Positions 15,001 through 56,570 of a stretch of 64,000 nucleotides of DNA are shown in pieces. Source of the stretch: Bacteroidales bacterium. Its GTDB lineage: Bacteria > Bacteroidota > Bacteroidia > Bacteroidales > GCA-2748055. Every line of letters starts with the position of its first letter. Position 1 is the first letter of the stretch. The stretch covers positions 1,722 to 65,721 of the forward strand of contig JAGLOO010000035.1 of the NCBI GenBank assembly GCA_023138875.1. Reading direction: 5' to 3'. The notes beneath the pieces are model-generated. The model was not told the DNA's origin, made no database searches, and worked only from the letters and a program-made list of their open reading frames with translations. Both the position numbers and the translations under genes were made by a program.

Positions 15001-15945
15001 CACACTTACGCCGATCCGGGTACCTACCTGGTAAAGTTCTACGTGAACAATGGAAGCTGTATCGATAGCATCAGGACCTCTATCGTCATCCATCCGAGGA
15101 TACCCGAGGCCGACTTCGATGTGCCTGAGGGTGGTTGTACACCAATGGAGATCCAGTTTGTGAACCAGTCGCTCTGGGCTACGACCTACCTGTGGGACTT
15201 CGGTGATGGCTATGTCTCCACCAAGGAGCATCCGACACATACTTTCTACGATCCTGGTGAGGTAACCGTAAGGCTCCAGGCCACAGGTCCGGGTGGAACC
15301 GACTATGCTTCGCATACCATCAATGTATATGAGACTCCGAACATTGCGTTCAACTCGGCACCTGACTCGGTATTCGTGAAGGACAAGCCGGTAAGGTTCT
15401 TTAACCTGTCGGCAGGGGCTGATCAATACCTCTGGGACTTTGGTGATTATTTCGAGGATGGTACACCGGCTGAAGGCAATTTCACAGATGAGGAAGATCC
15501 GCAGCATATTTACTTCACCGAAGGGTGGAAGGATGTGAAACTGGTAGGGTGGAATGATCACTGTATAGATAGCCTGACCATGACGGTAGTGAAGGTGATC
15601 TCGGCCGGTGACATCCAGTTCCCGACGGTGTTCAGGCCTGATCCGGACGGACCATCAGGTGGATGGATCGATCCCAATGATCCGAACCTGGATCCCAACA
15701 TCAAGAACAGCATCTTCTTCCCGGGTGTGAACAGGCAGGTGGATGAATACCATCTGTACATTTACAGCCGCTGGGGAGACCTGATCTTCCAGAGCCATGA
15801 TATCAACCACGGCTGGGATGGTTACATCAAGGGATCGCTGGCCTCACAGGGTGTATATATCTGGAAAGTTACCCTCGTCTACAAGAACGGTTCACCTGAT
15901 AGCATGGCAGGTGACATCACCCTGATCTGGAAAAGACCGCAGTAG
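1..15945 (+). CDS. Giant repeat-built cell-surface adhesin-like protein, T9SS type B cargo (5' end lies upstream of the window; >5,300 aa)
   Basis: Frame 1 is open from nt 1 (no stop before the track's GTG at 112) to TAG at 15943-15945. The translation is continuous beta-sandwich modules: C-E-x...[YF]QW[QEY] Ig-like units, GG[TS]G.Y.H.WTGD SprB-like units and five [FY][LY]WDFGD PKD signatures. It ends in an FPTVFRP..DG...Y.L.IYSRWG.L.F....GWDG.....QGVY.W......G....AGDITLIW block typical of the gliding-motility/T9SS type B C-terminal domain. Confidence 0.93.
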   Translation, partial: ATGTGGVIEWYDDPRHRNPPDLVHTGASFTHGETAPGVYNWWVTESRDYGSGVTCPSDTSRSTLTITPIPNKPDISVAGPTDFCFDGGVTSVTLTANPNEPPTIISYQWYRNGISVGGATSNTIVLDAIAETGNYIVRTYGVAPTNCPSPFTDPQVINIYALATTTDPPNRMICADDNMTTGNTTFGVTVGGAAHAIQWQRSDGGPWVNITAAAAPNDGCTYGGFTTATLSITEADYAINGYLYRVKLTTTAGACEIFSGSGLLTVNPIPNITTQPVDQTECEFNNAAFNVAANIVAGSIDTYQWQRENSDINAGTDGGAYTGFTTSTLTVNNPDRTFDNNRYRVIITSDQGCPLRSNNQRLYINPLADITTQPVAAEICENDNTSFSLATDGNPAVTGYQWQVQTGGVGPWNNAAGIVYNGGATATLNLTGVPIGYSTNLYKCVLTTNGPCPIESNTALLTVNPNPTASINPAAPAELCTGDVINFDGQPAGGTGGYSHSWTGDTGPLSVTNTQTPNFTAPVLGSQTTYNLTYTVTDGKTCTGTDNVAVVVNPTVTVNVMASLAEVCSNGTVNLDGDPQGGTGAITSLWTGTGAGFLSGTGIATPTFTAPVVVVQTTYTLTYRATDTKGCYAEQSINIDVNPNPSASILPGAPGELCYNEVQTLDGNPSGGTGGYIHAWTGDVTPLDVTNTVDPDFTAPSTGVQTTYNLTYTVQDGKSCMGTDVVTLTVNPEVVSAVLTGDASICSGNNADLQVAITGGTGNFTVTLSDLVPPLITTENNYVSGANITTGPHTAATNTYTISSVVDSKGCRATSETGSATILVGSIPTAAVLTGGTAICLGQTTPLQVNITGGAPPYKVVFDVLPDETNYISGADIATGILGLGTWDFNIVSVTDNCGVLISGAAVAGGNPQQITINPIPVITATNNDAVICSDGTTNIGLATSVGNTVYNWTVNDGGGVTWVGGRAPANGSITDGVGVQTILQNLQHTMNTTVSVVYTITSAGPLPTTCAGNTEIETVIVEPTPEAAITNSTQTICDGAALTGMAVSSVVTHNGAPTFDMAIVATTGNLGDLTATGVALTTLLGQAYPYTITGTLTNNTNDAIVIEYRVTPKLAGCSDGAVEVATVTIEPTPIAAISNSTQTICDGAGFTDMIVSNVATHSGTPEFDMTITATTGNLGDLTVTGNALTPRTGRAYPYTISGTLTNNTDDAIVIEYRVTPLLPTCSNGADVLATITIEPTPVATISNNAQVLCDGGALTGMTVNTAANPTGVETFDLTIVATTGLLADLTATGLALTTVSGQAYPYTISGTLTNNTDDAIVVEYRVVPKLAGCGDGALVTATVTVEPTPVAAISNAAQTICDGASIADMIVSNEATHNGTPEFNLVITATTGNLGDLTATGNVLTAVAGQAYPYTISGSLTNNTDDAITIEYQVTPVLPGCTNGTDVFATITIEPTPVAAISNAAQTLCDGDALTGMVVTSAANPAGAESFNLAIVATTGNVGDLTGTGNSLTTVLGNAYPYTISGTLTNNTDDAITIEYRITPLLAGCSNGAVETAVVTIEPTPVAAISNAVQTLCDGDALVGMVVSNEATHSGTPVFDLSIVATTGNLGDLTATGNSLTTRVGENYPYTISGTLTNNTDDAIVIEYRVIPTLPGCTDGAEVVAEVTIEPTPIATISNNAQVLCDGDALTGMIIATAANPSGVETFNLDIIATVGNLGDLTATGGALTTVAGGAYPYAINGTLTNDTDDAITVQYRVTPLLAGCSNGTVVTATVTIEPTPVAAISNAVQTLCDGDALVGMAVTNEATHNGTPEFDLVIVATTGLLGDLTATGLALTTVSGQAYPYTISGTLTNNTDDAIVIEYRVTPLLPTCGNGALVTAVVTIEPTPKAAISNAAQTLCDGDALTGMAVTSAANPTGAESFNLAIVATTGNLADLTATGLALTTVLGQAYPYTISGTLTNNTDDAITIEYRVTPLLAGCGNGAMETAVITIEPTPIAAISNNAQTICDGATLTGMVVTDQATHSGAPAFDLAIVATTGNIGNLTATGVALTTQSDQAYPYTISGTLTNNTNAAITIEYRVTPKLTGCGNGVLVTAVVTIEPTPVAAISNNVQTICDGDAVTGMVVSNLATHSGAATFDLDIVATTGNLGDLSATGVALTTVTGEAYPYTINGTITNNTFATIVIEYRVTPLLAGCSDGVVVVSEVTIYPTPTANPAPLTQTIPNGSATDITMGGDVAGTTFGWRVLNPGTTNATDGGPLNIGEKITQTLANNGAVPITVTYRIGPSANGCTGDSTDVVITIDPSVDMTVVNNAPHICTTGSSDLDLSSSVAGATFAWTVTDPGGAGASAGNGGPNTHTIQQQLFNVTTAPITVTYHITPTGPGPTFIIGTTQDIDVTVYPKPVGIYTNREPQICNGSAANIELDSDVAGSTFTWTVTDPSGASGATPSGAALAIGDSIFQVLANLGTTAFTVTYHIRPTGQGAVTCPGDILDVDVIVDPTPVASVTNTTPVICSGETTDITLNASVVGSTFTYAVADPKGTGATGGVGVIGSVISQLLVNATQTPVTIQYEIIPSGPGATACPGAAVYENVTVNPLPITSAITGIDTVCEGTANLVFSVVHTADSYYEWNVPAILGNITFGGSGLDSYAAIVLAANTAVQVTDSIWVFETNQYGCTKDTIYKPMTIIPFPVQVNITGDAAVCALTTHTYSVPNNVGSTYQWFIPPGAGFASADPTINTVDVTFGLISGQVRVIETSSGGCVTIHNPLNITVNQLPITTLNADKIAACDGDTITFTAGPAAQLNYEFFVNGGSEQNGVSNIFKTAGLVNNDQVTVNVTSVDGCENLSMPLAITIYDPPVVILSSSDADNIICAGENVSFMGTSGSAVNYNFFLNGVSQQSGALNFWSTIGLVDGDEVHVEALSAFGCWGGSDTITTTVNALPVAVISGDNTICPGNSTDLAVNITVGAPNYDVTIDNGVGLLSNYVSGTAIPVSPAFTTIYTLVSVVDANGCLSAILTPSAPNLTGSAVVTVRDTVEILTQPRQAETCEGIDTSFSVGAIGDGLTFQWETTDDLANPFGNIGGATAATYFVVGPTAAIDGHYYRVRVSSSFCPEFAYSDTVQLTLKYDPALVAHPADQTICEADGTGFAVNAGLTSNPIYQWQVSYDGGGAWLDLGDTAVYNGTSTDSVAVISAASRFNGYQYKVVVTGECGTPIESNVATLTIDERPEILQHPSDITVCEGLPVSFSVNAGVTSGVVYQWEVDMGSGFVVLGDTALVYSGTAADVLNVLNPESRFNGYEYRAVVSGVCPVPQTSNPALLIVNEIPEIVTQPLDATICENESPLFIVNAGVTSGASYQWQVSYNGGGAWSDLGDTAIYTGTASNTLRLTGVPSTNDGNLYHVVVSGLCVPAVTSADVTLTVRERPEIIQQPSDTIVCEGVPARFDVDAGVTANAAYQWQVNMNDGNGFNDFGDTLGIYTGSSQAVLQILVPASRFNGYQYRVIVSGDCIPPQVSNTATLTVNELPEITVEPVDKTICEEQNTFFTVSSGVTTNPLYQWQVDMGSGFVDIGSDTGVYSGTGSPNLFMTLVPSDYNGYVYHVVVSGACAPAMTSADVLLTVNENPEIILQPENDTICEGDVATFTVDAGVTTSVTYQWQVNRVGLWEDLNDGLDYTGTDTGILTVNNPVTTYHGYRYRVIVSGVCNPPVTSAEALLVVDERPEIITQPVDQAFCEDGDLYFHIHPGNTTTPVILWEYSTDGVAWNPADGLPEITDASNDTLFLSAIPSAYDGYMFHAVISGKCPAVVTSDPAVMTVYEKPQIDTQPVDVDACEQDTVMFFVDAGVTTNPAYQWEIWNGAAWIVPPPDIYSGVNTDTMYINGIHSGIDGLQIRLRLSGSCVPGLISDTAMLTVYERPEVVGQPLDVTICEGDSALFGVDAGVTTNPTYTWEYFDGGSWQTASGGFFADETTDTLKLEGVPATWTGTEFRAIISNLCGPNDTSTVVDLVVNERPGIVTQPVDVTTCEGIAAAFSMNAGVTTNPGYLWQYHGGVTWLPVTGVQYSGQGTNTLNILNPVSAMNGYAFRVIVTGYCDPFVISDSVIFTVEENAEVIQQPVYASICENGDTIFTVNAGVTTNPTFQWYYNDGVSGWLAVTADGVHAGFLTNTLVLNSVPWSMDNWLYRAEVSGDCGSTVISDPAGLVVYKLPEIVAQPVDTTTCELLNVSFTVDVGDTDAPFLQWEENDGVSGWQLLSDGGNYIGTNSTELKVYAVDSAMTGFRYRVSVRGECDPEVISGEVTLTVQSAPDIWTQPVDETICEGDNTSFSIFATGTGITYQWQVDAGSGFTDITGSNGGVYAGWDSNTLVLTGADRTFNFNRYRIRVEGTCVPMTLSNLAILFVQTPPEIQTEPVDNTICEFENAVYSVNATGEGLSYQWQESTNGGGNWNVLSDVGFYIGSATPTLSVFNVERGYDGYMYRVIITGACGVPAQSVDVNLTVRTAPEILTQPVALTACENLPAGFGLEAQGTNIIYQWQVNEGTGFNNILLTDPLYTGADTDSLTLLSAQPAQAGYSFRAIVTGDCPPAAISNPVIMLVNANPVITSDPVDDAICEDGSTVFSAGATGPELVYQWYVDRNDGNGFVVLTDDAVHLGSNTDQINLTSVPVTMDGWQYRLDVFSVCMPISTAVVTLTVWPNPTSSILGDLPNYPLICGGDLLTLDGNPSGGSGTWSLHQWTGDIGPLSAINEQVVEFETLIKGQYNLAYRVTDDRGCVGTDVVTIENDRPTAQFSSDAVPSCGYIEVNFINNSTADAVTFLWDFGDGTTSTQEDVSHGFDNVDPGGLVAYYHVKLIASSVNSCRDTAQSVITIYPKVVATIDADTTEGCHPLAVTFLTQPGGASYYWDFGDGNAEDGGYLAHHLYENYTTAAVTRTVELTTTSFYGCQDSETLDITIQPIPAPNFTAVPLVQTYPDATVAFTNETTPGPWTYLWDFGDSLSSTEENPTHTYADPGTYLVKFYVNNGSCIDSIRTSIVIHPRIPEADFDVPEGGCTPMEIQFVNQSLWATTYLWDFGDGYVSTKEHPTHTFYDPGEVTVRLQATGPGGTDYASHTINVYETPNIAFNSAPDSVFVKDKPVRFFNLSAGADQYLWDFGDYFEDGTPAEGNFTDEEDPQHIYFTEGWKDVKLVGWNDHCIDSLTMTVVKVISAGDIQFPTVFRPDPDGPSGGWIDPNDPNLDPNIKNSIFFPGVNRQVDEYHLYIYSRWGDLIFQSHDINHGWDGYIKGSLASQGVYIWKVTLVYKNGSPDSMAGDITLIWKRPQ
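3067..6630 (+). repeat. 11 x 324-bp (108-aa) in-frame tandem repeat array inside the giant CDS
   Basis: Each unit begins EPTP[VI]A[AT]ISN..Q..CDG and ends YPYTISGTLTNNTDDAI.IEYRV.P.L..C..G....A.VTI. Units start at 3067, 3391 and so on, and a different module starts exactly at 6631 (3067 + 11x324). Two subtypes (EATH.GTP.FD versus AANP.G.E.FN) alternate through units 3-9, giving a 648-bp higher-order period. Confidence 0.9.
6631..7795 (+). repeat. Four divergent ~97-aa modules inside the giant CDS
   Basis: Recurring pattern ...AG[ST]TF.W.V.[DN]P.G...G.......I.Q.L.N....P.TVTY.I.P....C.G......V.V.P. Boundaries are approximate. Confidence 0.65.
9100..14070 (+). repeat. 17 consecutive ~95-aa Ig-like modules inside the giant CDS
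   Basis: Each module reads PE[IV]..QP.D.T.CE.....F.V.AGVT.....YQWQV...G..F.D.GD...Y.G.....L.......NGY.YR.V.SG.C.P...S..A.LTV. I counted 17 QP.D..CE starts. The units are divergent at DNA level. Boundaries are approximate. Confidence 0.8.
14341..15600 (+). other. PKD-domain region of the giant CDS (about five PKD-like units)
   Basis: Signatures FLWDFGDGTTS, YYWDFGDGNA, YLWDFGDSLSS, YLWDFGDGYVS and YLWDFGDYFEDG are spaced about 85-95 aa apart. Confidence 0.8.
15601..15942 (+). other. T9SS type B (gliding-motility-associated) C-terminal sorting domain of the giant CDS
   Basis: The terminal ~110 aa read FPTVFRPDPDGPSGG...YHLYIYSRWGDLIFQS.DINHGWDGYIKG..ASQGVYIWKV.L.YKNG....MAGDITLIWKRPQ. A clear paralogous block ends the protein at 24807-26147. 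Confidence 0.85.
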
Positions 15946-17576: not shown

Positions 17577-18581
17577 TTGAAGAGACTTGCGCTTGTCATA
17601 TTGATAGTTGGTTTGTTTTCATGGGCAAAGGGTCAGGATCCGCAGTTCACTCAATTCTACGCAAATCCGCTCTACCTTGCCCCCTCCTTCGCAGGCGCAA
17701 CCGGACAGGACAGGATCACATCAGTATACAGGAACCAGTGGCCAGAGTTGAATAATGTTTTTGTCACCTACAGCTTTTCCTACGATCATTTCTTCGAGAA
17801 TTTCAACAGCGGGGTAGGCATTCTGCTGATAAGAGACGTTGCCGGATCGGGTAACCTTGGCATCCTCAACGCAGGGGTGATGTACTCCTATGATATCCAG
17901 GTAACCGACGAATTTCACCTGAGGCCAGGTATCCATTTCAATTACACACAGCAGGGGATTGATTACCACAAGCTCATCTGGAATGACCAGCTTTCCAGTG
18001 GGAGTACAGGAGGTGGTACCATTGAGCAACCCCCAACAGATCCCTACAAGCCCGATGTGGACTTTTCAGCCTCCCTGCTTGGATACACCGAACGGTTATG
18101 GTTTGGATTTGCGGTGGATCACCTTTTGAGACCCAATTATGGCCTGTATAACAACGATGCCCGATGGCCCATCAAGTACTCCGCATTTGGTGGAGCACAG
18201 ATCATCAAAAAGGGCAGGCTCCTTAACCCCATTGACGAAACGCTATCTCTCGCATTTCACTTCAGGCACCAGTATATCTATACCCAGCTGGACCTGGGCG
18301 TTTACTGGTATAAAGCACCTTTGATGCTTGGTTTCTGGTACAGGGGTATCCCCTTCTTCAAGGGATCCAATCCCGATTACCAGAAAGATCCCCGGGGTGA
18401 TGCCCTGGCATTCCTGGTGGGATACAAATTGGACCAGCTTCGCGTAGGATACAGCTACGACTTCACCATCTCCAACCTGGTCTCCTCCACCGGTGGTGCC
18501 CACGAGGTCTCGATCACCTACGAATTCAAGACCACCCGCAAAAAGCGCAACGCCCGCATGGTTCCCTGTCCGGAGTTTTAG
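17577..18581 (+). CDS. PorP/SprF-family type IX secretion system outer-membrane protein
   Basis: A signal peptide is followed by QDPQFTQFYANPLYLAPSFAG....R....YRNQWP, the hallmark N-terminus of PorP/SprF proteins. It lies downstream of a type B CTD cargo, as sprF does for sprB. The only in-frame start is TTG. Confidence 0.88.
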   Translation: MKRLALVILIVGLFSWAKGQDPQFTQFYANPLYLAPSFAGATGQDRITSVYRNQWPELNNVFVTYSFSYDHFFENFNSGVGILLIRDVAGSGNLGILNAGVMYSYDIQVTDEFHLRPGIHFNYTQQGIDYHKLIWNDQLSSGSTGGGTIEQPPTDPYKPDVDFSASLLGYTERLWFGFAVDHLLRPNYGLYNNDARWPIKYSAFGGAQIIKKGRLLNPIDETLSLAFHFRHQYIYTQLDLGVYWYKAPLMLGFWYRGIPFFKGSNPDYQKDPRGDALAFLVGYKLDQLRVGYSYDFTISNLVSSTGGAHEVSITYEFKTTRKKRNARMVPCPEF

Positions 18582-18673: not shown

Positions 18674-19429
18674 TTGGCAAAAGACTACATTATAGAACAA
18701 TTTAAAAGAGAATTCAAGGGAAGGGAATCCTTTTCCAGAGAAGAACTCTATGACTTTTATCGGCAATTTGAACCAGATTTGAAGGAGACCACATTCAGAT
18801 GGAGAATTTATTATCTGAAAACCAAGAAAATAATTGCTGTTATTTCAAGAAATCTTTTTACTCTTTCATACAAACCTGTCTTCAAACCAGAGGCTGGCGA
18901 TACAGAAAAACAGCTTTATTCAAAAATTGAGAAGCAATTCCCAACCCTAAAGCATTGTGTTTGGTCAACCAAAATTGTAAGTGAATTTATGCTTCATATT
19001 CCAGGTAGATCCATTACCATTTTGCAGGTTGAGACAGAGGCCCTAGAGCCTGTTTATGAGTTTTTAAAAGAACAAAAGTTCCGCAATGTTTTCATCCAAC
19101 CGGTTGAAAAGGAAATTGAACGCTATATATTTGAAAGCAAGACGGCTATTATTCTGCAATCGTTGATTTCAAAATCCCCGGTTCAAAGAATAAATGAAGT
19201 CGTTACAACAACGCTTGAAAAACTGATAGTTGATTTATATTGTGATAAAAAACTGTATAGTGCTTTTCAGGGCAGTGAATTGGTTCACATAATCAATTAT
19301 GCTTACAACCGCTATTCGATCGATTTTACAAAACTTTTTGGCTACGCTAAAAGAAGAAGAAAGGAAATTGAAATAATGGGCTTTCTATCAGATAAAACCG
19401 ATATACCAAAAAATGTATTGAATGATTGA
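18674..19429 (+). CDS. AbiEi-like antitoxin candidate, partner of the downstream AbiEii-family gene
   Basis: 251 aa with a TTG start. It overlaps the next gene by 8 nt. The N-terminal segment REELYDFYRQF....TFRWRIYYLKTKKII..ISRNLFTL looks like a wHTH. The role is inferred from its position upstream of an AbiEii-type nucleotidyltransferase. Confidence 0.55.
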   Translation: MAKDYIIEQFKREFKGRESFSREELYDFYRQFEPDLKETTFRWRIYYLKTKKIIAVISRNLFTLSYKPVFKPEAGDTEKQLYSKIEKQFPTLKHCVWSTKIVSEFMLHIPGRSITILQVETEALEPVYEFLKEQKFRNVFIQPVEKEIERYIFESKTAIILQSLISKSPVQRINEVVTTTLEKLIVDLYCDKKLYSAFQGSELVHIINYAYNRYSIDFTKLFGYAKRRRKEIEIMGFLSDKTDIPKNVLND

Positions 19430-20546
19430 CATTAAATCACTTTCAGCCGAATGGTTGGCTGAAAAGAGAAATATATATAACCAAGACCCTAACATAATGG
19501 AGAGCATGATACATGCACTGTATTTGTTAGAGCAATTAAAAATTACGGGGCTAGATTTCATATTTAAAGGGGGAACAAGTTTAATCCTACTGATGGAGCA
19601 ACCCAAAAGGTTTTCAGTAGATATTGACATCATTATTGATCCGAATCTACCTAAAGAAGAATTGGAAATCTATCTTTCAAAGATTGTTGATGCAAGCACA
19701 TTTGAAAGAATGGTATTAGATAGAAAGCGTAGTTATAAAGAAGGTATCCCCAAAGCACATTATAAGTTTATCTACAAGTCAAATTTTCCCAATAGAAACA
19801 AGGAAGGGGATGTAATATCCAATCCCGAAAGAGATATCTTACTTGATATTCTTTTTACGGAAAACCTTTACCCTGTACTGGTTAACAGACCGATTGAAAC
19901 AGAATGGTTGATTCAAAATGGTGATCCAGTAATCATTACAACACCCGACATTGACTCAATTGCAGGTGATAAACTCACCGCATTTGCTCCTAATACTACC
20001 GGTGTACCCTATGGTGTTGAAAAGGAAAAAGAAATCATAAAGCAATTGTTTGATGTTGCTTGCTTATTTGAACTATTGAATGACGTAGAAGTTTTTAAAA
20101 AATCATTTATAGAATCTGCAAACTGCGAAATCAAGTATCGACCTGAAAGGAACGTTACTTCATTCGAGCAAGTGTTACATGACACCATAAATACTGCCCT
20201 GCTTATTGCCAGGAAAGACATCTTGATTGACGAAGAGGACAAAGCAAAGTTCAATGAAATCAATATAGGCATTAATCAGTTTGGACACTTTGTGTACGTT
20301 GGGAAATTCGGGGTTTTAGAAGCACAAGTTGCAGGTGCAAAAGCCGCTTACTTAGCTGCAATAATTCTTACAGATAATAATGATAAGATTCAAACATTTA
20401 GTCCCGCAATTTCCTTAACAGACTATATGATAACAAACCTTGATTATAATTATCTGAATAAGCGATTGAAGTTTGTTGCACAAGGCGAAGCCCTTTTTTA
20501 CTGGCATCAAACAATCAGCCTGCTTTTTCCAGGAAATAAAAAATAA
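19422..20546 (+). CDS. abiEii: Nucleotidyltransferase AbiEii/AbiGii-family toxin
   Basis: 374 aa. FKGGTSLILLMEQPKRFSVDIDIII matches the G-G-[TS]...S.D[IL]D nucleotidyltransferase motif of AbiEii. It is translationally coupled to the upstream gene and sits in AT-rich DNA. Confidence 0.8.
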   Translation: MIDIKSLSAEWLAEKRNIYNQDPNIMESMIHALYLLEQLKITGLDFIFKGGTSLILLMEQPKRFSVDIDIIIDPNLPKEELEIYLSKIVDASTFERMVLDRKRSYKEGIPKAHYKFIYKSNFPNRNKEGDVISNPERDILLDILFTENLYPVLVNRPIETEWLIQNGDPVIITTPDIDSIAGDKLTAFAPNTTGVPYGVEKEKEIIKQLFDVACLFELLNDVEVFKKSFIESANCEIKYRPERNVTSFEQVLHDTINTALLIARKDILIDEEDKAKFNEINIGINQFGHFVYVGKFGVLEAQVAGAKAAYLAAIILTDNNDKIQTFSPAISLTDYMITNLDYNYLNKRLKFVAQGEALFYWHQTISLLFPGNKK

Positions 20547-21262: not shown

Positions 21263-22479
21263 ATCTGAAATATGGTTCCTCAGAGGTTTCACTTTCCATT
21301 CCATCGAAGGCTGTTGACCTGGTCCATTCCGAACCACCCCTTACAGTTGATTCTGAGAAGTTCAAACAGGATCTGCACTCCTTCCTCCATATGTGGGAAA
21401 AACGCATCAGCAGTGTGGGCATTGTGGTGAGTGACAAGACCCGGCTCTGTCAGTACCCGGTATACCTGCCGTTGCTGACAGAGGTTCTTTCGGAGTTTGG
21501 TGTGGATGAGAAGGACATCACCTTTTACATTGCATATGGAACCCATCCTGTCCAGACCAAGGAGGAGTGCCTCAACAGTTATGGAGAGACTTACAACCGG
21601 TTCAGATTTGTGCACCATAACAGCAAAGCGGACGACAGGCTTATTTCCCTGGGGACTACCGTCCGGGGAACCGGAGTAAAGATCCTGAAGGAAGTATTGG
21701 ACCACGATCTGCTGATCACTTTCGGGGCCGTTTTACACCACTATTTTGCCGGATTTGGAGGCGGTCGCAAGCTCCTGGTACCTGGTCTGGGGGGCTATGA
21801 AACCATCCTGCAGAACCACCAGCTGTTCCTTGATTTTGAAAACAGAAAACTGAGAGAGGGGTGTCAGTCGGGGAACCTGGACGACAATCCCCTTGCCCTG
21901 GACCTGGAAGAGATCAATACCCTTCTGCCCAAACGACTGGAGATCCATGCCATCCTCAACAGCCGGAAAGAAGTATGTGAGATCCATTTCGGAACCGGGT
22001 ATGACGATTTCAGGGATACCTGTGACCGGTACGACCTCTTCTTCAGATCGTCAGAGGAGAGGCAGTATGACATGGTGGTGGCCAGCGCAGGCGGTTATCC
22101 AAAGGACATTAATTTTATTCAGGCCCATAAATCCATTCATAACGCAGCCTCTTTTGTAAAGAACAATGGAACATTGATCATCTTTGCTGAGTGCAGGGAC
22201 GGGATCGGGAACCAGGCTTTTATGAACCTGTTTAAACTGGGGGGATGGGACCGGATCTTTGAGAAGATGGCATCAAGGTATGAAAACAATGCCGGTACGG
22301 CCCTGGCCATGATTCATAAATCCCGCCGGATAAAAATACATTTTGTGACTTCATTTGATAAAGAGACCTGCAACCTGATGGGGGCCGTTAAAACCTCCCC
22401 TGAGCAGGCGCAGCAATTAATTACCGATGAAACGGGTGATATGGCTTTAATTGAAAATGCAAGTCTGGTGTACAAATAG
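21253..22479 (+). CDS. LarA-like (lactate racemase N-terminal domain / DUF2088) protein
   Basis: Motifs VSDKTR, AYGTH......E and HHYFAGFGGGRKLLVPG match the conserved LarA N-domain blocks. Confidence 0.7.
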   Translation: MELDLKYGSSEVSLSIPSKAVDLVHSEPPLTVDSEKFKQDLHSFLHMWEKRISSVGIVVSDKTRLCQYPVYLPLLTEVLSEFGVDEKDITFYIAYGTHPVQTKEECLNSYGETYNRFRFVHHNSKADDRLISLGTTVRGTGVKILKEVLDHDLLITFGAVLHHYFAGFGGGRKLLVPGLGGYETILQNHQLFLDFENRKLREGCQSGNLDDNPLALDLEEINTLLPKRLEIHAILNSRKEVCEIHFGTGYDDFRDTCDRYDLFFRSSEERQYDMVVASAGGYPKDINFIQAHKSIHNAASFVKNNGTLIIFAECRDGIGNQAFMNLFKLGGWDRIFEKMASRYENNAGTALAMIHKSRRIKIHFVTSFDKETCNLMGAVKTSPEQAQQLITDETGDMALIENASLVYK

Positions 22480-22492
22480 AATGACTTTACAG

Positions 22493-24145
22493 ATGAAGAG
22501 GATCTATTTCATAGTGGTGATATCCGGGCTCTGGCTGGGCGGAGCGCTTCCATTATTCTCCCAGTATGTGCCCACCCATATTACCAATGAGGGGATCTAC
22601 CTCTTCCTGGATGAGCTGGCCACTAAAAAGGTTATTGATCTGTGTTCCCTGGTCAAACCCTATTCACGGCAAACCATTGCTGAGAAACTCCGGAAAGCTG
22701 ATTCTCTTCGGACGGGGCTCTCTTCCAGGCAACAGTCCGAACTTGACTTCTACCTGAAGGATTATATGAAGGAATTACCCGGGCCGGATCCGCATGTCCG
22801 CGCCACCAGCTGGTTCTGGCAGAAGAACCATGGCAACAAACGATTCGATGTATTCCATTACCGTGACTCCCTTTTTCAGATCACTGTCAACCCGATCCTG
22901 GGTTCGGATGTATGGGTGAATTCCAACGGATCATTTTATCACTGGTGGAACGGTGTGGAGGCGTGGTCCTGTGCCGGCAGGTTTGGAATCTGGGCCTCGC
23001 TCAGGGACAACCATGAATCGGTGGAGCTGACCGCAAGGGATTTCCAGAATCAACGGACCGGGGGTTCAAATTTCAAAATATTCTCGGGAGGGAAACGGGA
23101 CTACTGGGAACTCAGGGGAGGTATTACTTATGCGTGGGACTGGGGACATGTGGGACTGATCATGGGACAGTTTGCCTGGGGGGAAAACAATGCAGGATCC
23201 AATATCTATTCGGGCCGTACACCTGCCTTCCCCAGGATTGAACTATCCATGGATCCTGTCGACTGGTTCAGGTTTACTTATGTGCACGGGGCCCTCATCT
23301 CTGAAGTGGTGGATTCATCATTATCCTTCTACACCACAACTGCATATGGAACTGACTACAGGGAGGTATACCATCCTAAATATCTGGCAGCCAATTTATT
23401 CACCTTCATTCCGTGGACAGGACTACAGCTTTCTGTCGGGAATTCCGTGGTATACGACTACCGGCATCCCCATGCCGCATTCTTATTACCTGTGGCGTTT
23501 TACAAAGCCATCGATCACACACTGAATGCCAGGATCGACAACATGAATTCCCAGCTGTTCCTGTCTGTTTCATCCCGGAACCTCCGGGACTTTCATTTCT
23601 ACGGAACTGTTTTTCTCGATGAAGTGGCAGTTGACAGGATCTTTGACAGGCAGGAGTTCAACTTTGTCTCATATAAAGCCGGACTGGCCACCACCATCCT
23701 GCCCGATGCAAGGATCGTGGCTGAGTATACCTGGACAAATGCGCTCACATTTATGCATAATATTCCAACCACCACCTTCGAATCAAACCAATACAATCTG
23801 GGACACTACCTGGAGGACAATGCAAAGGACCTTTATGTGGGCATAGCATACCGTCCATTCAGAACCCTGAATATTAAATCTTATATAAATCACGCTGTGA
23901 AGGGTCCGGACCATACCGAAATGGGTACGGACCGGCTGGGTATTGTTCCTTTTGATCCCATTGTCTGGAAATCGGTCCGGTTCGGACTCCTTGCTAACCT
24001 GCAGGTGATCAATGACCTCTGCATCCGGCTGGGCTATGAATGGCGGGATGTGACAGGGGAGCAGGAGTACCTGGACCGGTGGACCCCGGAGGTATACCAC
24101 GGGCAAACGGGTACAGTAAGGATCGGGGTGAATTTCGGCTTTTAA
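22493..24145 (+). CDS. wzi: Capsule-assembly Wzi-family outer-membrane protein (candidate)
   Basis: A signal peptide is followed by EGIYLFLDELATKKVIDL..LVKPYSRQTIAEKL, the N-terminal helical motif I associate with Bacteroidota Wzi-like proteins. The rest is long and Tyr/Trp/Gly rich like a beta-barrel. I chose the start MKRIYF at 22493 over the track's TTG at 22451, which overlaps the previous gene. Confidence 0.55.
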   Translation: MKRIYFIVVISGLWLGGALPLFSQYVPTHITNEGIYLFLDELATKKVIDLCSLVKPYSRQTIAEKLRKADSLRTGLSSRQQSELDFYLKDYMKELPGPDPHVRATSWFWQKNHGNKRFDVFHYRDSLFQITVNPILGSDVWVNSNGSFYHWWNGVEAWSCAGRFGIWASLRDNHESVELTARDFQNQRTGGSNFKIFSGGKRDYWELRGGITYAWDWGHVGLIMGQFAWGENNAGSNIYSGRTPAFPRIELSMDPVDWFRFTYVHGALISEVVDSSLSFYTTTAYGTDYREVYHPKYLAANLFTFIPWTGLQLSVGNSVVYDYRHPHAAFLLPVAFYKAIDHTLNARIDNMNSQLFLSVSSRNLRDFHFYGTVFLDEVAVDRIFDRQEFNFVSYKAGLATTILPDARIVAEYTWTNALTFMHNIPTTTFESNQYNLGHYLEDNAKDLYVGIAYRPFRTLNIKSYINHAVKGPDHTEMGTDRLGIVPFDPIVWKSVRFGLLANLQVINDLCIRLGYEWRDVTGEQEYLDRWTPEVYHGQTGTVRIGVNFGF

Positions 24146-24200
24146 CTTTCACTTATTACAGCTATCTTTAATTAGAAATCACAATCAGACATTGAACAGG

Positions 24201-24797
24201 ATGGCAAAGAACATTTATCCCGTTTTCGACAGGATCTATGACAGGAAAGTGAAAGAGGAGATCCTTCGACAGAGCGCCAAGGTCATATGGTTTACAGGAC
24301 TCTCCAGCTCGGGTAAAACCACACTGGCTGCGAACCTTGAGAAGGAGTTGTTTTTCAGAAGGTTCTTCTGCCATGTGCTGGATGGAGATAATATCCGTAT
24401 GGGGATCAATAATAACCTGGGATTCAGCGAAGAGGACCGCATGGAGAACATCAGGCGGATTGCTGAAGCTTCCAAACTGCTGATCAATACCGGTATGATC
24501 ACCATCTGTTCATTCATCAGTCCGACCAACGCAATCAGGAGCCTTGCCCGCAAGATCATTGGAGAGGATGATTTCATTGAAATCTTCCTGAATCCACCCC
24601 TGGAAGTGTGTGAAAATCGGGATACAAAAGGGCTTTATAAGAAAGCCCGGGCCGGGCTCATCCAGGATTTTACCGGTATCTCCTCCCCTTTCGAAGCTCC
24701 GGAGAACCCGGACCTGGAGATCGATACATCTACCATAAGCATCAAAGATTCGGTGGATCTGATCTTCAATAAGATTATTGACCGGATTACGTTGTGA
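24201..24797 (+). CDS. cysC: Adenylyl-sulfate (APS) kinase
   Basis: It has the P-loop FTGLSSSGKTTLA plus LDGDNIR.G.N..LGFS..DR.ENIRR. The start is moved to the first ATG (24201). Confidence 0.9.
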   Translation: MAKNIYPVFDRIYDRKVKEEILRQSAKVIWFTGLSSSGKTTLAANLEKELFFRRFFCHVLDGDNIRMGINNNLGFSEEDRMENIRRIAEASKLLINTGMITICSFISPTNAIRSLARKIIGEDDFIEIFLNPPLEVCENRDTKGLYKKARAGLIQDFTGISSPFEAPENPDLEIDTSTISIKDSVDLIFNKIIDRITL

Positions 24798-24806
24798 TAA
24801 GTTTCC

Positions 24807-26147
24807 TTACCTCTGATCATCCCAGATCAGGGTTACATCGCCCCGGAGCTTGAATTCTTCTCCATTTTCCCGGATTCCTTCAGCCATCCAGACGTAAACT
24901 CCGCCTGCTGACCGCTCCTGAAGTATATATCCGTCCCAACCCTTATAAATATCCCTTGTTTCATAGACGAGTTCACCCCTTCTGGTATAGATCCTCAGGT
25001 TGTATTCCCTGGGAACATCTTCAAAAACAGGGTGGAACAGATCAATGCGTTTTTCGTGGGGGCTATAGCTGCCGCCTCCCGGACCTGTGGGATTTGGACT
25101 AAAAGCAGTTGGGAATCTGAGAGTGGTGGCAGAACCCTGATAAACCGGAATTACCTGGATTGAAGAATCGGTGCAAGCAAATCCGGTGGTGGCCACCAGT
25201 CTGAGGTATGTAGCATCTTGATTAATATCAGAAAGTTTAATTGAAGGTTGAAATTCGTTTGATGACCAATTGCTGCAAATGATATTGCTCTTTCCGATTA
25301 AACTCCACGAAAATGAAAATGCTCCAGCTGAGTAGTTGAGGAGGTTCAGCTCTTCAACACCATCGATGCTTTCTAATCCTTCTTCAATTTCAAATTCAGC
25401 CACCGGAGAGGGATATACTTCAATGATCTGATGATACGATGAAGTTTGACCTTTTGCATTGTCCGCAGTCAGTGTAACTGCGTATTTACCGGGTTCCTTA
25501 AATATATAAACAGGGTCCTTCATCAGAATTCTTTCACTTTTTCCGAAAGACCAATGAAAGGATTCTTCGTTTACGCTCTGGTTAAAGAACTGTACTGTTA
25601 AGGGAGCACAGCCGGATTGAACTGAACATGTAAAGTAGGTGATCAGGGTGTTGTAAGCCATCTCTTCCTGAACCACGTCCATGGATCTGTCATCATCAGT
25701 GATGATTTCAATTTCTTCCGGATCAGATACCTTGCTGTTTTCGGATTGTTCCGCAACATGCCCGGGTACACCGTTGGCAGACTTTTGCCTCTCCGGCGCT
25801 GAACCGATCTTCTTATCATTCACATCACCCTGATCATTTTCTGCGATCTCAACGGCTGACTCCTTACCCTGATCAGTAATGATCCCGGGGTGACCGGATT
25901 CAGGTTCCGGGGCCCGGACCACTCCTCCACTATCCGGTCTGTTCGTGGTAATCAGCGCGATCAATCCGGCACCAATGATCAGCAATCCTCCAACGTAGAA
26001 AATATTGAGTTTCCGCGGATTAAAGCGATTAAACTGCCTCCAGCGAAGTTTTCGATCTATTTTCTTCCATGAATCCGGAGAAGGCGTCATTTCCGCCTCT
26101 CCAAGTTTGGTGCTGAAGAGTTGTTCTATGTTGAGTTTGTCACTCAT
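24807..26147 (-). CDS. Membrane-anchored anti-sigma-like protein with PKD domain and T9SS type B C-terminal sorting domain
   Basis: Its start overlaps the upstream ECF sigma stop by 4 nt. The N-terminus (..P.PDSWKKI.. then the TM segment IFYVGGLLIIGAGLIALI) parallels the ECF-linked protein at 57112-57657. The middle holds a PKD-like block (CAPLTVQFFNQS...WSFG..). The last 102 aa (24810-25115) are FPTAFSPNPTGPGGG...YNLRIYTRRGELVYE....KGWDGY.....AGGVYVW.....NG......GDVTLIW, paralogous to the giant protein's CTD. Confidence 0.8.
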   Translation of the reverse strand: MSDKLNIEQLFSTKLGEAEMTPSPDSWKKIDRKLRWRQFNRFNPRKLNIFYVGGLLIIGAGLIALITTNRPDSGGVVRAPEPESGHPGIITDQGKESAVEIAENDQGDVNDKKIGSAPERQKSANGVPGHVAEQSENSKVSDPEEIEIITDDDRSMDVVQEEMAYNTLITYFTCSVQSGCAPLTVQFFNQSVNEESFHWSFGKSERILMKDPVYIFKEPGKYAVTLTADNAKGQTSSYHQIIEVYPSPVAEFEIEEGLESIDGVEELNLLNYSAGAFSFSWSLIGKSNIICSNWSSNEFQPSIKLSDINQDATYLRLVATTGFACTDSSIQVIPVYQGSATTLRFPTAFSPNPTGPGGGSYSPHEKRIDLFHPVFEDVPREYNLRIYTRRGELVYETRDIYKGWDGYILQERSAGGVYVWMAEGIRENGEEFKLRGDVTLIWDDQR

Positions 26148-26698
26148 TGTGGTGAAGTTTCACTTGCTTTTAGTTTAATCAACCGTTCCTGAAGCCAGCG
26201 TCTGGCTCTGCTGTATTGTGATTTGCTCGTATTCTCATCTATTTTAAGGATCTCTGCAATCTCCCGGTGTTTGTATCCTTCAACCGCATAGAGGCTAAAA
26301 ACCATCCTGTAACCGTCTGGCATCTGCCGGATCACATTAAACAGCTCCTCCTTGCTAAAATCGGCTTCACCCCAATATGTCTCCTCAAATCTGAACTCTT
26401 TGATGTCATCGATATCGTCGTGGTACCGATGTTTTCGCATCTTGTGATAATGGGTGATCGCTGTATTAATCATGATCCTGCGCATCCAGGCCAGCAAAGA
26501 GCCATCTCCCTTGAAATCCTTAATATTCAGGAAGATCTTCACAAAACCTTCCTGCATGATATCTTCAGCTTCTTCTATACTCTGGGCATAACGATTACAA
26601 ACAGCCAACAGCAACCGGGAATAGGTCTCAAACAGCTTCCGCTGGGCTGTATGTTTGCCTTTCTTGCATCCCGCAAGTATGTCCTTATCACCGTTCAT
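26144..26698 (-). CDS. ECF-type RNA polymerase sigma-70 family factor
   Basis: Region 2 reads AEDIMQEGFVKIF......F.G.GSLLAWMRRIMINTAI. Region 4 reads PDGYRMVFSLYAVEGYKHREIAEILKIDENTSKSQYSRARRWL. Confidence 0.9.
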   Translation of the reverse strand: MNGDKDILAGCKKGKHTAQRKLFETYSRLLLAVCNRYAQSIEEAEDIMQEGFVKIFLNIKDFKGDGSLLAWMRRIMINTAITHYHKMRKHRYHDDIDDIKEFRFEETYWGEADFSKEELFNVIRQMPDGYRMVFSLYAVEGYKHREIAEILKIDENTSKSQYSRARRWLQERLIKLKASETSPQ

Positions 26699-26748
26699 CC
26701 GTTGGTTCAGTATTTAAGACCAGTGGTTATGCGGATTGGTTGCACCAT

Positions 26749-27543
26749 TTATCTTACAACAAAATAGGGATTCAGCAGGTTCTCCTTGTTGTATTCCATC
26801 TCTTCACCCGTATCCACCCGGAACACATTTTTGCCGGCAGCTTTCACAACAGCATGGGCAGCTGCAGTATCCCATTCCATGGTGGGTCCGAGGCGTGGGT
26901 AAACTTCGGCATCTCCCGAGGCCACCATGCATAACTTCAGGGAACTGCCCTTGTTTACCAGTGATAGCTCTTTTCCTCCCTTGTCCAACGCGTTAACAAA
27001 AGCTTCGGTCTCTTCGTTGTAGTGGGACCGGCTTGCCACCACCCTGAAAAACCGGTTATCCTCGTTTTCGCGGGGCAACTTTTCTGAGAACTGGAGCAGG
27101 TAATCCAGGGGCTGATTAAAATTCTTCTCCTTGCTGCACAGGTATGCCCCCCTTCCGGAAATACCCACGTACAGATTGTTCAGTACAGGGGCAAAGACCA
27201 CCCCGAACAGCGGTTTCCCCTCCTCCACAAGGGCAATATTCACGGTGAATTCGCCATTGCGTTTGATAAATTCTTTGGTCCCGTCCAGCGGATCCACCAG
27301 CCAGAATTTCGTCCACATTTTCCGCTCTGCGTAGGGAATGCTTTTTCCTTCTTCACTTAAGACAGGAATCCCGGTCTTCATCAGAGCATCGGCTATGATC
27401 TCATGAGCTCTCCTGTCCGCGATGGTCAGGGGTGAATCATCGGCCTTGGATTCGATCCCAAAATCCTCCCCTCCGTATACCTCCATGATAGCCTTTCCAG
27501 CTTTAACGGCTGCCTGAATGGCATGGGCATAGTTGTTTTTCAT
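26749..27543 (-). CDS. cysQ: 3'(2'),5'-bisphosphate nucleotidase
   Basis: Inositol-monophosphatase fold motifs are present: SEE...., WLVDPLDGTKEF and WDTAAAHAV. Confidence 0.85.
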   Translation of the reverse strand: MKNNYAHAIQAAVKAGKAIMEVYGGEDFGIESKADDSPLTIADRRAHEIIADALMKTGIPVLSEEGKSIPYAERKMWTKFWLVDPLDGTKEFIKRNGEFTVNIALVEEGKPLFGVVFAPVLNNLYVGISGRGAYLCSKEKNFNQPLDYLLQFSEKLPRENEDNRFFRVVASRSHYNEETEAFVNALDKGGKELSLVNKGSSLKLCMVASGDAEVYPRLGPTMEWDTAAAHAVVKAAGKNVFRVDTGEEMEYNKENLLNPYFVVR

Positions 27544-27666
27544 GAATACGAAGATATTAAATATAAACTTTGGCCGGTTACACCTTTCATCTGCAACCTT
27601 ACTTCATCTCTCTTTTGTCTTTATTATTAAGAAATTCTTTCTAATTTCACGCGATAACACTGACCT

Positions 27667-29190
27667 ATGAAACGCCCCAAGGCCGGACTCATTATTATCG
27701 ACCTGATTATTCTCTCAGGGGCATATATATTTACAGCCGGCCTTAAGCCGGTAATGGCTTCCTACCTCTCCCCAAAATACCTCATAGGTTTTGGGATTAC
27801 AATGGTACTGTGGGTGATCTGTTCGTTCTATTTTAAAAAGTACCACATCTCGAGAAGGGAGAAAGCAACTTTCCTGATCCGGAATGTTGCCTACCCGAAC
27901 CTCATCGCACTGGCATTTGTGGCTTTTATCATCTATGCTTTCAATACCACCTATTTTTCCAGGATGATGGTATTCGGCACCTTTGGTGTAGCCACCGTGT
28001 TAGAGATGATCTTCCTGAGTTTGTATACTTACCTGCTTGTTTCCCCGGAATACGATGTGGCCTCGGCTTTCCTTGATATGCCTCCGACAACCCGGGATAA
28101 GCGAAAGATGAAAGAAGCTGTGATACACAGCGATCTGCATGTTGAGGCGAAGTACCTGCGGGAAGCAATCATCGAGGAGTGCGGAGAAAAAGCGGATGCA
28201 TACATCGAGGATCATGTGAACCTGGAGGATAAAAGGACACTGGTTATTTCCACCCTCACACGGTTTAATATCCTGCGCCAACCTGAGAATCATTTTGAAA
28301 CCATTGTCAACCTGCGAAGGATCAATGACATCCAGCACCTGAATAGGTTTTTTGAGGCGGTGAACCACAAGCTTCCGCATGAGGGTAGGTTTATCGGGTG
28401 CGCAGAAACAGCCAGACAGCGATTGCGCAGGATCCTCCGGAAATATCCGCCGGTCATCAACTGGATCATTTACACGCTTGATTATATTGTGAAAAGGATT
28501 TTTCCAAAATTTTACCCTACAAGATGGATCTACTTTTTCCTTACCCGCGGAAACAACAGGGTCCTTACACAGGCAGAAATACTGGGACGCCTTTATGCCT
28601 GTGGATTTGAAGTTACGCAAGAGAATTTTGTAAACGGTTTGTACTTTTTCGTAACAAAACGGATCAAGGAACCGGCATTTGACATCAATCCTACCTATGG
28701 TCCCTTTATCAAGCTGAAAAGGGTGGGCAAAGGAGGAGAATACATCAAGGTCTATAAGCTGCGAACAATGTACCCCTATGCGGAATACCTGCAGGATTAT
28801 GTCCATAAACTCAACAGCCTGGAGAACGGCGGAAAATTCAAAAATGATTTCAGGGTTGCACGCTCACGCTCTTTTCTCCGCAGGTTATGGATTGATGAAC
28901 TACCCATGATCCTCAACCTCTTTCGCGGTGACCTGAAACTGGTTGGGGTGCGCCCGTTGAGTCAGCACTATTTTGACCTCTATTCCAAAGAGCTCCAGGA
29001 AAAACGCACGAAGTACAAGCCGGGGCTGATCCCTCCCTTCTACGCCGATCTTCCGGAAACCCTGGAAGAGATCCAGGAATCTGAAATGCGCTACCTGGAT
29101 TCTTTTGAAAAAAGACCTTTTCGCACCCAGTGGAAATACTTCTGGAAAGCTCTGAAGAATATTCTCTTTAAGAAGGTGCGATCCGCATAA
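27667..29190 (+). CDS. Initiating polyprenyl-phosphate sugar transferase (bacterial sugar transferase family)
   Basis: The N-terminus has multiple TM helices. The C-terminal block is KFKNDFRV.....LRRLWIDELPMILNLFRGDLKLVGVRP. Confidence 0.85.
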   Translation: MKRPKAGLIIIDLIILSGAYIFTAGLKPVMASYLSPKYLIGFGITMVLWVICSFYFKKYHISRREKATFLIRNVAYPNLIALAFVAFIIYAFNTTYFSRMMVFGTFGVATVLEMIFLSLYTYLLVSPEYDVASAFLDMPPTTRDKRKMKEAVIHSDLHVEAKYLREAIIEECGEKADAYIEDHVNLEDKRTLVISTLTRFNILRQPENHFETIVNLRRINDIQHLNRFFEAVNHKLPHEGRFIGCAETARQRLRRILRKYPPVINWIIYTLDYIVKRIFPKFYPTRWIYFFLTRGNNRVLTQAEILGRLYACGFEVTQENFVNGLYFFVTKRIKEPAFDINPTYGPFIKLKRVGKGGEYIKVYKLRTMYPYAEYLQDYVHKLNSLENGGKFKNDFRVARSRSFLRRLWIDELPMILNLFRGDLKLVGVRPLSQHYFDLYSKELQEKRTKYKPGLIPPFYADLPETLEEIQESEMRYLDSFEKRPFRTQWKYFWKALKNILFKKVRSA

Positions 29191-53451: not shown

Positions 53452-53473
53452 TGTCAGCAGCTATTTGATCTGT

Positions 53474-56406: not shown

Positions 56407-56570
56407 ATCAGTCTTTTATACAAATTTATAATTTATCCTGAGCTTCACCTCAACAATTTTTTCCACTGCTGTCGGGTTGGTCTTTCCGTCTTTCCAGTTT
56501 TTTCATTTTTTTCCTCTGTTATGCAACCTCGGAAACCCTAACTTGTCTTTCCAATTGAAAGCATAATACT

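Follow-up and report, generated by a model that had tools for sequence, protein, structure and literature searches.

An extracytoplasmic function sigma factor of Bacteroidales paired with a probable anti-sigma factor that ends in a type B-like secretion domain

The window, by which we mean the whole stretch of 64,000 nucleotides of a Bacteroidales bacterium analyzed here (contig JAGLOO010000035.1), contains on its minus strand a gene for an extracytoplasmic function (ECF) sigma factor of 184 amino acids. [quoted passage not shown] The ATG of the partner gene overlaps the stop of the sigma gene by four nucleotides, as a preliminary description of this DNA had stated; TCAT on the plus strand at 26144–26147 reads ATGA on the coding strand. 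The sigma factor scores 56.5 bits with Sigma70_r2, 54.6 bits with r4_2, and 100.6 bits with TIGR02937, and its closest relatives in the Protein Data Bank are ECF sigma factors. It has only sigma-70 regions 2 and 4, and its 184 residues lie in the expected range of about 180–200. The protein is thus a sigma factor of the ECF type.

The anatomy of the partner protein was derived from alignments of 24 and 106 homologs, from an analysis of hydropathy and charge, and from an AlphaFold2 model (106 sequences, mean predicted local distance difference test score, pLDDT, of 78). Alignment numbering is the true residue number minus one. Residues 1–48 contain two predicted helices (about 7–15 and 24–40) and many positions that are invariant across the homologs. 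The mean pairwise identity is 0.59 in this N-terminus, 0.47 in the transmembrane (TM) helix, 0.13 in the linker, 0.51 in the PKD domain, 0.46 in a second, immunoglobulin (Ig)-like domain, and 0.61 in the CTD. Constraint is therefore strongest in the N-terminus and the CTD; in the linker, length is preserved and sequence is not.

The hydrophobic span is uncharged over 19–23 residues in the 106 homologs and starts near residue 49. The 15 residues before it carry on average 4.0 Lys/Arg versus 0.25 Asp/Glu, and the 15 residues after it carry 1.5 Lys/Arg versus 3.75 Asp/Glu. This positive-inside bias identifies the span as a membrane anchor with its N-terminus in the cytoplasm. A modeled helix at residues 48–67 (alignment numbering) matches the span, and the single TM helix proposed in the preliminary description is thus borne out. 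No conserved cleavage motif follows the anchor in the homolog alignments, and the juxtamembrane sequence is variable. Together with the conserved leader of 47 residues, this makes the segment unlike a signal peptide. The homolog alignments and the hydropathy and charge analysis suggest that the protein lacks the cleavable Sec signal peptide expected of T9SS cargo.

Beyond the membrane, residues 71–162 have pLDDT values below 50. This putatively disordered tether is rich in Glu, Ser, Ala, Pro, and Thr, and its length stays within 98–139 residues (median 107) despite an identity of 0.13. The remainder, at about residues 168–446, is modeled as three β-sandwich domains with pLDDT mostly above 90. 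The first is a PKD domain (PKD_4, residues 183–240, 31.1 bits, cutoff 27; pLDDT above 90), in agreement with the PKD-like domain reported before, and a PKD match was obtained in 24 of 24 scanned family members. The second is the Ig-like sandwich, with β-strands at a pLDDT of about 90–98, and the third is the CTD. Foldseek with the full-length model returned generic tandem Ig-like adhesin stalks, with GhpA fragments on top, and no match specific to a CTD.

The protein fits neither the FecR-type nor the zinc-binding kind of anti-sigma factor. No FecR or related domain was matched in Pfam or NCBIfam at E≤1, and there is no TonB-dependent receptor gene at the locus; FecR-type cell-surface signaling does not describe it. 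The zinc-binding class I (ZAS) definition does not apply either: zf-HC2 gave no match, residues 1–48 hold no Cys or His motif, and the N-terminal segment is only about 45 residues long with two helices, not a four-helix domain.

A homolog search with the 446-residue protein gave 249 matches. The best 120 of these (E≤1e−87) are nearly all full-length, at about 445–450 residues, and come from uncultured Bacteroidales or Bacteroidota. The family falls into at least 120 clusters when grouped at 90 % identity, and into dozens when grouped at 50 %. An exhaustive phmmer search of 1.84 billion representatives with residues 1–72 gave 198 clusters at 50 % identity, and we scored the matches with domain hidden Markov models (HMMs) derived from the family. 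Nearly all full-length matches of 420–480 residues consist of the N-terminal domain, TM helix, linker, PKD domain, a further PKD or Ig-like domain, and CTD. In a second class, of about 530–550 residues, the N-terminal motif is duplicated, PKD-like domains are present, and the end is CHU_C-like (30.2 bits in P0222, above the cutoff).

A sigma gene lies directly upstream of the anti-sigma gene, overlapping it or abutting, in 29 of 29 loci, which cover four architecture classes and five gene neighborhoods. It does so in all 21 loci L001–L021 of the close family, with gaps of −17 to +1, and likewise in L051 and L052; in the single locus of a divergent PKD-PKD-CTD class; for two proteins of the second class in three loci; and in three of three loci of a barrel-ended class described below. 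Conservation of the pairing in related genomes, on which the preliminary description had made its reading depend, was thus found. In loci L001–L021 the sigma orthologs are 73–84 % identical to the window sigma factor, and the partner is only 40–60 % identical.

The most informative names that homologs carry in public records are "PKD domain-containing protein" and [quoted passage not shown]; others are labeled "hypothetical". Such names would suit an ordinary T9SS cargo gene that follows a sigma gene by chance, in which the hydrophobic segment is a long signal peptide and there is no anti-sigma function. We find this scarcely credible and rejected it. The 47 residues before the span are among the most conserved parts, the span of about 20 residues has a strong positive-inside bias, the sigma gene accompanies it in every locus across different neighborhoods, and the barrel-ended proteins have a homologous N-terminal module.

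Two loci of the family deserve separate mention. One metagenome-assembled genome (MAG042, JBDLIQ01) has two paralogous pairs of a sigma factor and a CTD-bearing anti-sigma factor (L004 and L005), with identities to the window protein of 53 % and 45 %. Either the pair was truly duplicated or the bin is mixed. The match to the sigma ortholog in L018 (3438–4000) is split into three segments that lie in different frames, which points either to a frameshifted pseudogene or to a fault in the assembly of that long-read metagenome-assembled genome.

The barrel-ended proteins form a third class. They have the duplicated N-terminus of the second class, a TM helix, a linker of 128–167 residues, and a barrel-like C-terminal domain. 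PF13568 (OMP_b-brl_2) was matched in 10 of 19 members. The AlphaFold2 model of this class has a disordered linker followed by about eight long strands, and Foldseek aligned the end with the TM domain of OmpA, OmpX, NspA, and OpcA. By hhalign, the window family and the barrel class are related over the N-terminus and TM helix (70 columns, probability 98.8 %, E 6.5e−17, 40 % identity). The window sigma factor is 43–53 % identical to the partner sigma factors of barrel-type and other CTD-type anti-sigma factors; those of the barrel class are 48–51 % identical and have the same TGCAACCAAT −35 element. At one locus (L044 1–5398, on a 3.9-Mb contig) a barrel-type (Dma-like) pair lies three genes downstream of sprA, which encodes the T9SS translocon (SprA_N match); this may be a coincidence.

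The barrel class has exactly the architecture published for the Dma proteins, which by definition begin with an anti-sigma domain, continue with a TM helix and a long intrinsically disordered tether, and end in a β-barrel, and which are encoded beside an ECF21 sigma factor (PMC10927553; 10.1101/2025.09.27.678952). Residues 1–40 of Dma1 pull down Das1 (PMC10927553). Full-length Dma1 is found in total membranes and reaches both membranes, and C-terminal fragments occur in outer-membrane vesicles (PMC10927553; 10.1101/2025.09.27.678952). Outer-membrane stress and inhibition of BamA both elicit a response of the orthologous Reo/EcfO system, whose regulon makes the O-antigen longer (PMC9308784, PMC13114119).

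The window protein shares with Dma and Reo the position of its gene directly after an ECF sigma gene, the restriction to Bacteroidota, a short N-terminal putative sigma-binding segment, a single TM helix, a long disordered tether, and an end putatively destined for the outer membrane. Adjacency to and co-transcription with an ECF sigma gene, as in Dma, are seen here in the ATGA overlap and in the pairing at all loci. The protein had been placed in the position of a cognate anti-sigma factor, and the conserved N-terminus, the pairing, and the homology to barrel-ended anti-sigma factors bear this out. An anti-sigma role is thus a well-supported prediction from sequence. By homology to proteins with the Dma1 architecture, residues 1–48 would bind the sigma factor.

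The difference lies at the other end. In place of the eight-stranded C-terminal β-barrel, the window protein carries the PKD, Ig-like, and type B CTD domains, and its family has a shorter tether than the barrel class (median 107 versus 150 residues). PF13568 gave no match in the 446-residue protein, the C-terminal 280 residues of which are the three β-sandwich domains. Because the defining C-terminal barrel is missing, we do not file the protein as a Dma member but as a related variant. With the barrel replaced by a CTD, contact with the outer membrane would depend on T9SS or PorP/SprF and not on insertion by the β-barrel assembly machinery (BAM). The preliminary description knew of no such module. 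This does not hold for an N-terminal domain and TM helix joined by a disordered tether to an outer-membrane-targeted end, which was published in 2022–2024 as the Reo/Dma family. It does hold for the CTD variant: we found no description of an anti-sigma factor with a T9SS CTD in the literature, and the Dma papers do not mention it. The new element is the replacement of the barrel by a PKD-Ig-type B CTD; the design of N-terminal module, TM helix, and tether was already known.

The nature of the CTD is central to any link with T9SS. CHU_C (PF13585) matches residues 378–426 with 24.7 bits (E 2.6e−5), and TIGR04131 gives 13.6 bits. Of the two domains read in the preliminary description, PKD is thus called above its cutoff and the type B CTD falls just below the CHU_C cutoff of 27 here, yet CHU_C was matched in 24 of 24 scanned family members at E≤0.01 (best 1.7e−8). 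The proposed paralogy with the CTD of a giant adhesin encoded at 112–15945 is confirmed by BLASTP of the last 103 residues (40 % identity, E 2e−28) and by shared motif blocks, and the CTD HMM of the family scores 90.2 bits on the adhesin. The adhesin CTD passes CHU_C and also fails TIGR04131 (28.5 bits); this model is therefore a poor fit for type B CTDs in the lineage, which have diverged from it.

The family, the adhesin CTD, and CTDs of conventional type B cargo from Chitinophagaceae loci were brought into one alignment. The cargo block TAF(S/T)PN...D.F.P corresponds to TAFSPNP.GP..G...R.D.FHP in the anti-sigma family, (Y/F)..RWG.LVF to Y(T/S)RRGEL.FE, GWDG to GWDGY, GVYVW..EG to VYVW..EG, and G.VTLI to GDVTL.W. 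The CTD is the most conserved domain of the family, and its conservation falls on these blocks. In Flavobacterium johnsoniae, each of five motifs in type B CTDs is required for secretion (PMC12618676), and type B CTDs bind PorP-like barrels (PMC9143113). We assign the domain to the type B CTDs by homology, and curated thresholds do not call it. Relative to conventional cargo, the family has an insertion of 11 residues in block 1 and an extension of 4–5 residues past the usual C-terminal LIR.

These features could also be read in another way. A Dma-like anti-sigma factor might use its periplasmic PKD-Ig-CTD part as an ordinary sensor, with the CTD-like sandwich co-opted for binding a ligand or protein and without any role in T9SS. 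The scores below the curated type B cutoffs, the insertion, and the extension would fit such a sensor, as would an inner-membrane tether that is incompatible with normal export, the divergent classes without an adjacent PorP gene, and the generic Ig-like stalks that were all Foldseek gave. However, the insertion and the extension are both present in the CTD of the giant adhesin, which is surely T9SS cargo, with a PorP/SprF gene downstream. This points to lineage traits of functional CTDs and not to decay. The high conservation of the CTD, concentrated on the type B motif blocks, likewise speaks against a co-opted sandwich. In addition, two independent architecture classes end in CHU_C-like domains, and the sister class ends in another outer-membrane-targeted domain, from which it can be argued that reaching the outer membrane is a conserved theme. 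We regard the ordinary sensor as rather unlikely.

The adhesin and the PorP/SprF gene are conserved neighbors of the pair. The conserved order is adhesin with type B CTD, PorP, a LarA-like gene, an open reading frame (ORF) of 560 residues, and cysC; it continues on the opposite strand with anti-sigma, sigma, and cysQ. In the window, an AbiEi-like gene is inserted between adhesin and PorP, and a DUF6577/AbiEii pair between PorP and the LarA-like gene; the latter two abut in related genomes such as L016 and L052. The statement that no porP/sprF-like gene is adjacent was imprecise. The gene lies 6.2 kb from the anti-sigma stop, and orthologs that are 74–88 % identical lie 3.5–4.6 kb beyond the anti-sigma gene in L008, L016, L019, L051, and L052. 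Its product is a candidate docking partner of the anti-sigma CTD.

Our preferred reading is an anti-sigma factor that spans the envelope and whose distal end is taken to T9SS by the CTD. We give this reading as a whole a probability of about 0.55. The two helices of the cytoplasmic N-terminus would hold the sigma factor, the protein would cross the inner membrane once, and the acidic disordered tether of about 100 residues would span the periplasm. The CTD would bring the distal end to T9SS at the outer membrane, where it would dock on, or be handed to, a PorP/SprF-type shuttle. The protein would then bridge the envelope as Dma and Reo do, via T9SS and not BAM, and report the state of T9SS or of the outer membrane. 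Loss, overload, or pulling of the outer-membrane contact would expose the tether or the juxtamembrane region to proteolysis, intramembrane cleavage would come next, and the sigma factor would be released. It could then transcribe its own operon and, in some genomes, a divergent envelope-glycan operon. The active signal could be engagement or pulling by a working T9SS (a flux model) or failed engagement (a stress model, as for Reo). Engagement by T9SS or PorP, proteolytic release, and signal direction are steps that we infer, and the coupling of the anti-sigma factor to T9SS is plausible from the sequence.

Several points weigh against this reading. The window protein is under the curated cutoffs of both type B models (24.7 against 27 and 13.6 against 35 bits), and recognition of the CTD by T9SS would follow from homology. 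T9SS cargo of the canonical kind loses its signal peptide and is then soluble in the periplasm; a substrate tethered to the inner membrane could not pass fully out of SprA without being cut or docking from the periplasmic side. The PorP/SprF gene lies 6.2 kb away from the anti-sigma gene, and none was found within 4 kb of the divergent-class pairs. The genomes are closely related, so that the synteny with PorP may reflect shared ancestry and not selection. Within-genome co-evolution of the anti-sigma and adhesin CTDs was not seen, with 36–40 % identity both within and between genomes. The link to Dma1 and Reo themselves would run through the architecture and context of the barrel class.

The preliminary description had called the topology of a membrane-tethered T9SS substrate paradoxical. 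The precedent of Dma, for which a single polypeptide tethered to both membranes was shown experimentally, softens the paradox, and the problem of how such a substrate would leave SprA remains. A tethered CTD can be a signaling element, since PorA fixed to the inner membrane still signals through its CTD, which acts as a ligand in the periplasm (PMC12152298).

The flux model of the preliminary description is a special case of our reading. In this release by export, signal peptidase or another site-1 protease would cut the ectodomain from its anchor, T9SS would take it, and one sigma factor would be freed for each export. Signal peptidase is the site-1 protease for RsiV, and with the secreted anti-sigma factors FlgM and BtrA, release of the sigma factor is coupled to export. 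The window CTD resembles those of type B cargo, and C-terminal fragments of Dma1 are cut within the tether in vivo (PMC10927553). Such a release by export nevertheless seems distinctly improbable: the variable juxtamembrane sequence offers no conserved cleavage motif, a tether kept at 98–139 residues is better explained by spanning than by a disposable linker, and export of the ectodomain is a proposal drawn from the likeness of the CTD.

A bolder version of the envelope-spanning reading has T9SS, as proton-driven machinery with its PorP/SprF shuttle, gripping the CTD end of the still anchored anti-sigma factor; the pull might break the tether and free the sigma factor. We consider this doubtful. 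If true, it would mean, with the barrel sister class, that one anti-sigma module has been fused to clients of BAM and of T9SS and reports how well each works.

Comparison with known systems places the protein between several of them. Like type B cargo that uses PorP/SprF shuttles (SprB-SprF, PG1035-PorP; PMC9143113, PMC12618676), it has a C-terminus of about 100 residues that aligns block by block, Ig and PKD domains before the CTD, and a PorP/SprF gene and giant type B adhesin as conserved neighbors. Unlike such cargo, it has a conserved cytoplasmic domain and a membrane anchor in place of a cleavable signal peptide, is paired with a sigma factor, lies under the curated cutoffs, and has no adjacent shuttle gene. 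In the PorA to PorXY-SigP pathway of Porphyromonas gingivalis (PMC7712824, PMC12152298), a T9SS CTD likewise serves as a signaling element toward control of an ECF sigma factor. PorA differs in that it is a soluble cargo with a type A CTD that acts via the histidine kinase PorY and the response regulator PorX, and it is confined to Porphyromonas. With FecA-FecR-FecI the protein shares the scheme of an inner-membrane anti-sigma factor with a periplasmic end directed to an outer-membrane protein and release by regulated proteolysis, but a FecR domain and a TonB-dependent transducer are both missing from the Pfam matches, and the proposed outer-membrane partner is a T9SS component. FlgM (sigma-28) and BtrA (BtrS) embody the same concept, in which a secretion machine removes an anti-sigma factor and so reports its own activity. 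They are soluble cytoplasmic proteins exported via type III systems, whereas the window anti-sigma factor is membrane-anchored and T9SS acts only at the outer membrane.

The sensing and control of T9SS in Bacteroidota beyond the PorXY-SigP-PorA system of Porphyromonas are little understood, and the widespread family described here would wire a T9SS sorting domain directly to a transcription factor. If the link is functional, the promoter motif, the one-protein sensor, and the candidate PorP/SprF partner would give a genetic handle on T9SS status. It would also widen the Dma idea to a modular design, in which one anti-sigma module and tether are combined with different outer-membrane-targeting ends, and it makes one ask whether a client still tethered to a membrane can be engaged by T9SS. 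The proteins of the family merit annotation as anti-sigma factors.

A candidate ECF-type autoregulatory promoter, invariant as TGCAACC-N17-GTC, precedes the sigma gene. The elements TGCAACCA and GTC, about 16–17 nucleotides apart, are kept in 20 of 20 aligned cysQ–sigma spacers, which are otherwise variable. This exact pattern occurs four times in the window against 0.5 expected, and none of 100 shuffles reached four; the fourth match lies inside a gene. Sigma genes of the other classes are preceded by TG(C/T)AAC(C/T)-N17-(G/A)TC. The copy before the divergent polyprenyl-glycosylphosphotransferase gene lies 48 nucleotides before its start, and 5 of 15 related loci have the motif at −72 to −74 relative to the start codon. 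The operon is thus a possible and not a universal member of the regulon. An envelope-glycan operon under this sigma factor may echo the effect of Reo/EcfO on O-antigen.

Table 1. Features of the sigma/anti-sigma locus and of other parts of the window.
Feature	Position	Strand	Evidence or remark
ECF sigma factor gene, 184 aa	26144..26698	−	Sigma70_r2, r4_2, TIGR02937
Probable anti-sigma (partner) gene, 446 aa	24807–26147	−	start overlaps sigma stop
Putative cytoplasmic N-terminal domain, residues 1–48	26004..26147	−	conservation, AlphaFold2 helices, hhalign to barrel class
Single TM helix, residues 49–68, N-in/C-out	25944..26003	−	uncharged span and charge bias
Acidic, predicted disordered periplasmic tether, residues 69–167	25647..25943	−	pLDDT, length, composition
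PKD domain, residues 168–251	25395..25646	−	PKD_4 profile, AlphaFold2
Second Ig-like β-sandwich domain, residues 252–341	25125..25394	−	AlphaFold2 strands, Foldseek
Type B T9SS CTD by homology (CHU_C-like), residues 342–446	24810..25124	−	CHU_C, adhesin identity, motif blocks
Candidate ECF-type autoregulatory promoter, TGCAACCAATCCGCATAACCACTGGTC	26718..26744	−	−35 TGCAACC, −10 GTC
ECF-type motif copy upstream of second window ECF sigma	56522–56547	+	
ECF-type motif copy (GCAACC-N17-GTC) upstream of polyprenyl-glycosylphosphotransferase gene	27592–27619	+	exact pattern match
Adenosine 5'-phosphosulfate (APS) kinase gene cysC	24192–24797	+	flanks sigma/anti-sigma pair
CysQ-type inositol-phosphatase-family gene	26749–27543	−	flanks sigma/anti-sigma pair
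Divergent polyprenyl-glycosylphosphotransferase gene (Bac_transf)	27667–29190	+	followed by epimerase and OmpH genes
Giant adhesin ORF, >5,277 aa	112–15945	+	PKD repeats; runs off left window end
Type B CTD of giant adhesin	15628..15945	+	CHU_C 33.9 bits; closest CTD paralog in window
AbiEi-like gene	16016–16837		inserted between adhesin and PorP/SprF gene
PorP/SprF-family outer-membrane shuttle gene	17577..18581	+	PF11751 198.5 bits, TIGR03519 214.6 bits
DUF6577/AbiEii pair	18674–20546		between PorP and LarA-like gene; inserted relative to related genomes
564-aa ORF	22451–24145	+	no Pfam/NCBIfam match; ends ...GVNFGF
Second ECF sigma	56571–57119	+	36 % identical to first; same TGCAACC...GTC motif before it
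Partner of second ECF sigma, 181 aa	57112–57657	+	single TM
370-aa secreted protein	57629–58741	+	overlaps 181-aa partner gene; no Pfam match
Zinc-finger (zf-HC2) anti-sigma	52693–53451	−	β-rich C-terminal tail
1,216-aa protein	47091–50741	+	many TPR repeats, C-terminal CHAT protease-like domain; unrelated to pair

The genes cysC and cysQ flank the sigma/anti-sigma pair in every close relative, and an NTP_transf_5 gene follows the anti-sigma gene in some genomes. A connection of the locus to sulfation of an envelope component is conceivable. The end of the 564-residue ORF resembles the C-terminus of an outer-membrane protein. Related loci have a counterpart of it in the interval from cysC to the LarA-like gene, with 553–559 residues in L002 and L052.

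Elsewhere in the window, the preliminary description had seen a P.PD.W.KI motif common to the N-terminus of the 446-residue protein and the 181-residue partner of the second ECF sigma factor. We could not support this: the family N-terminal HMM gave no match and BLASTP of the two N-termini gave E 0.034, so that no homology of that partner to the Dma-like N-terminus is detectable by either method. For the type A-like tail ascribed to the zinc-finger anti-sigma factor, TIGR04183 gives no significant score (12.1 bits against a cutoff of 23, E 0.14). Upstream of this zinc-finger gene (52693–54340, minus strand) a sigma-like protein of 288 residues is encoded, with an N-terminal extension of about 110 residues and only weak region 4 and ECF matches.

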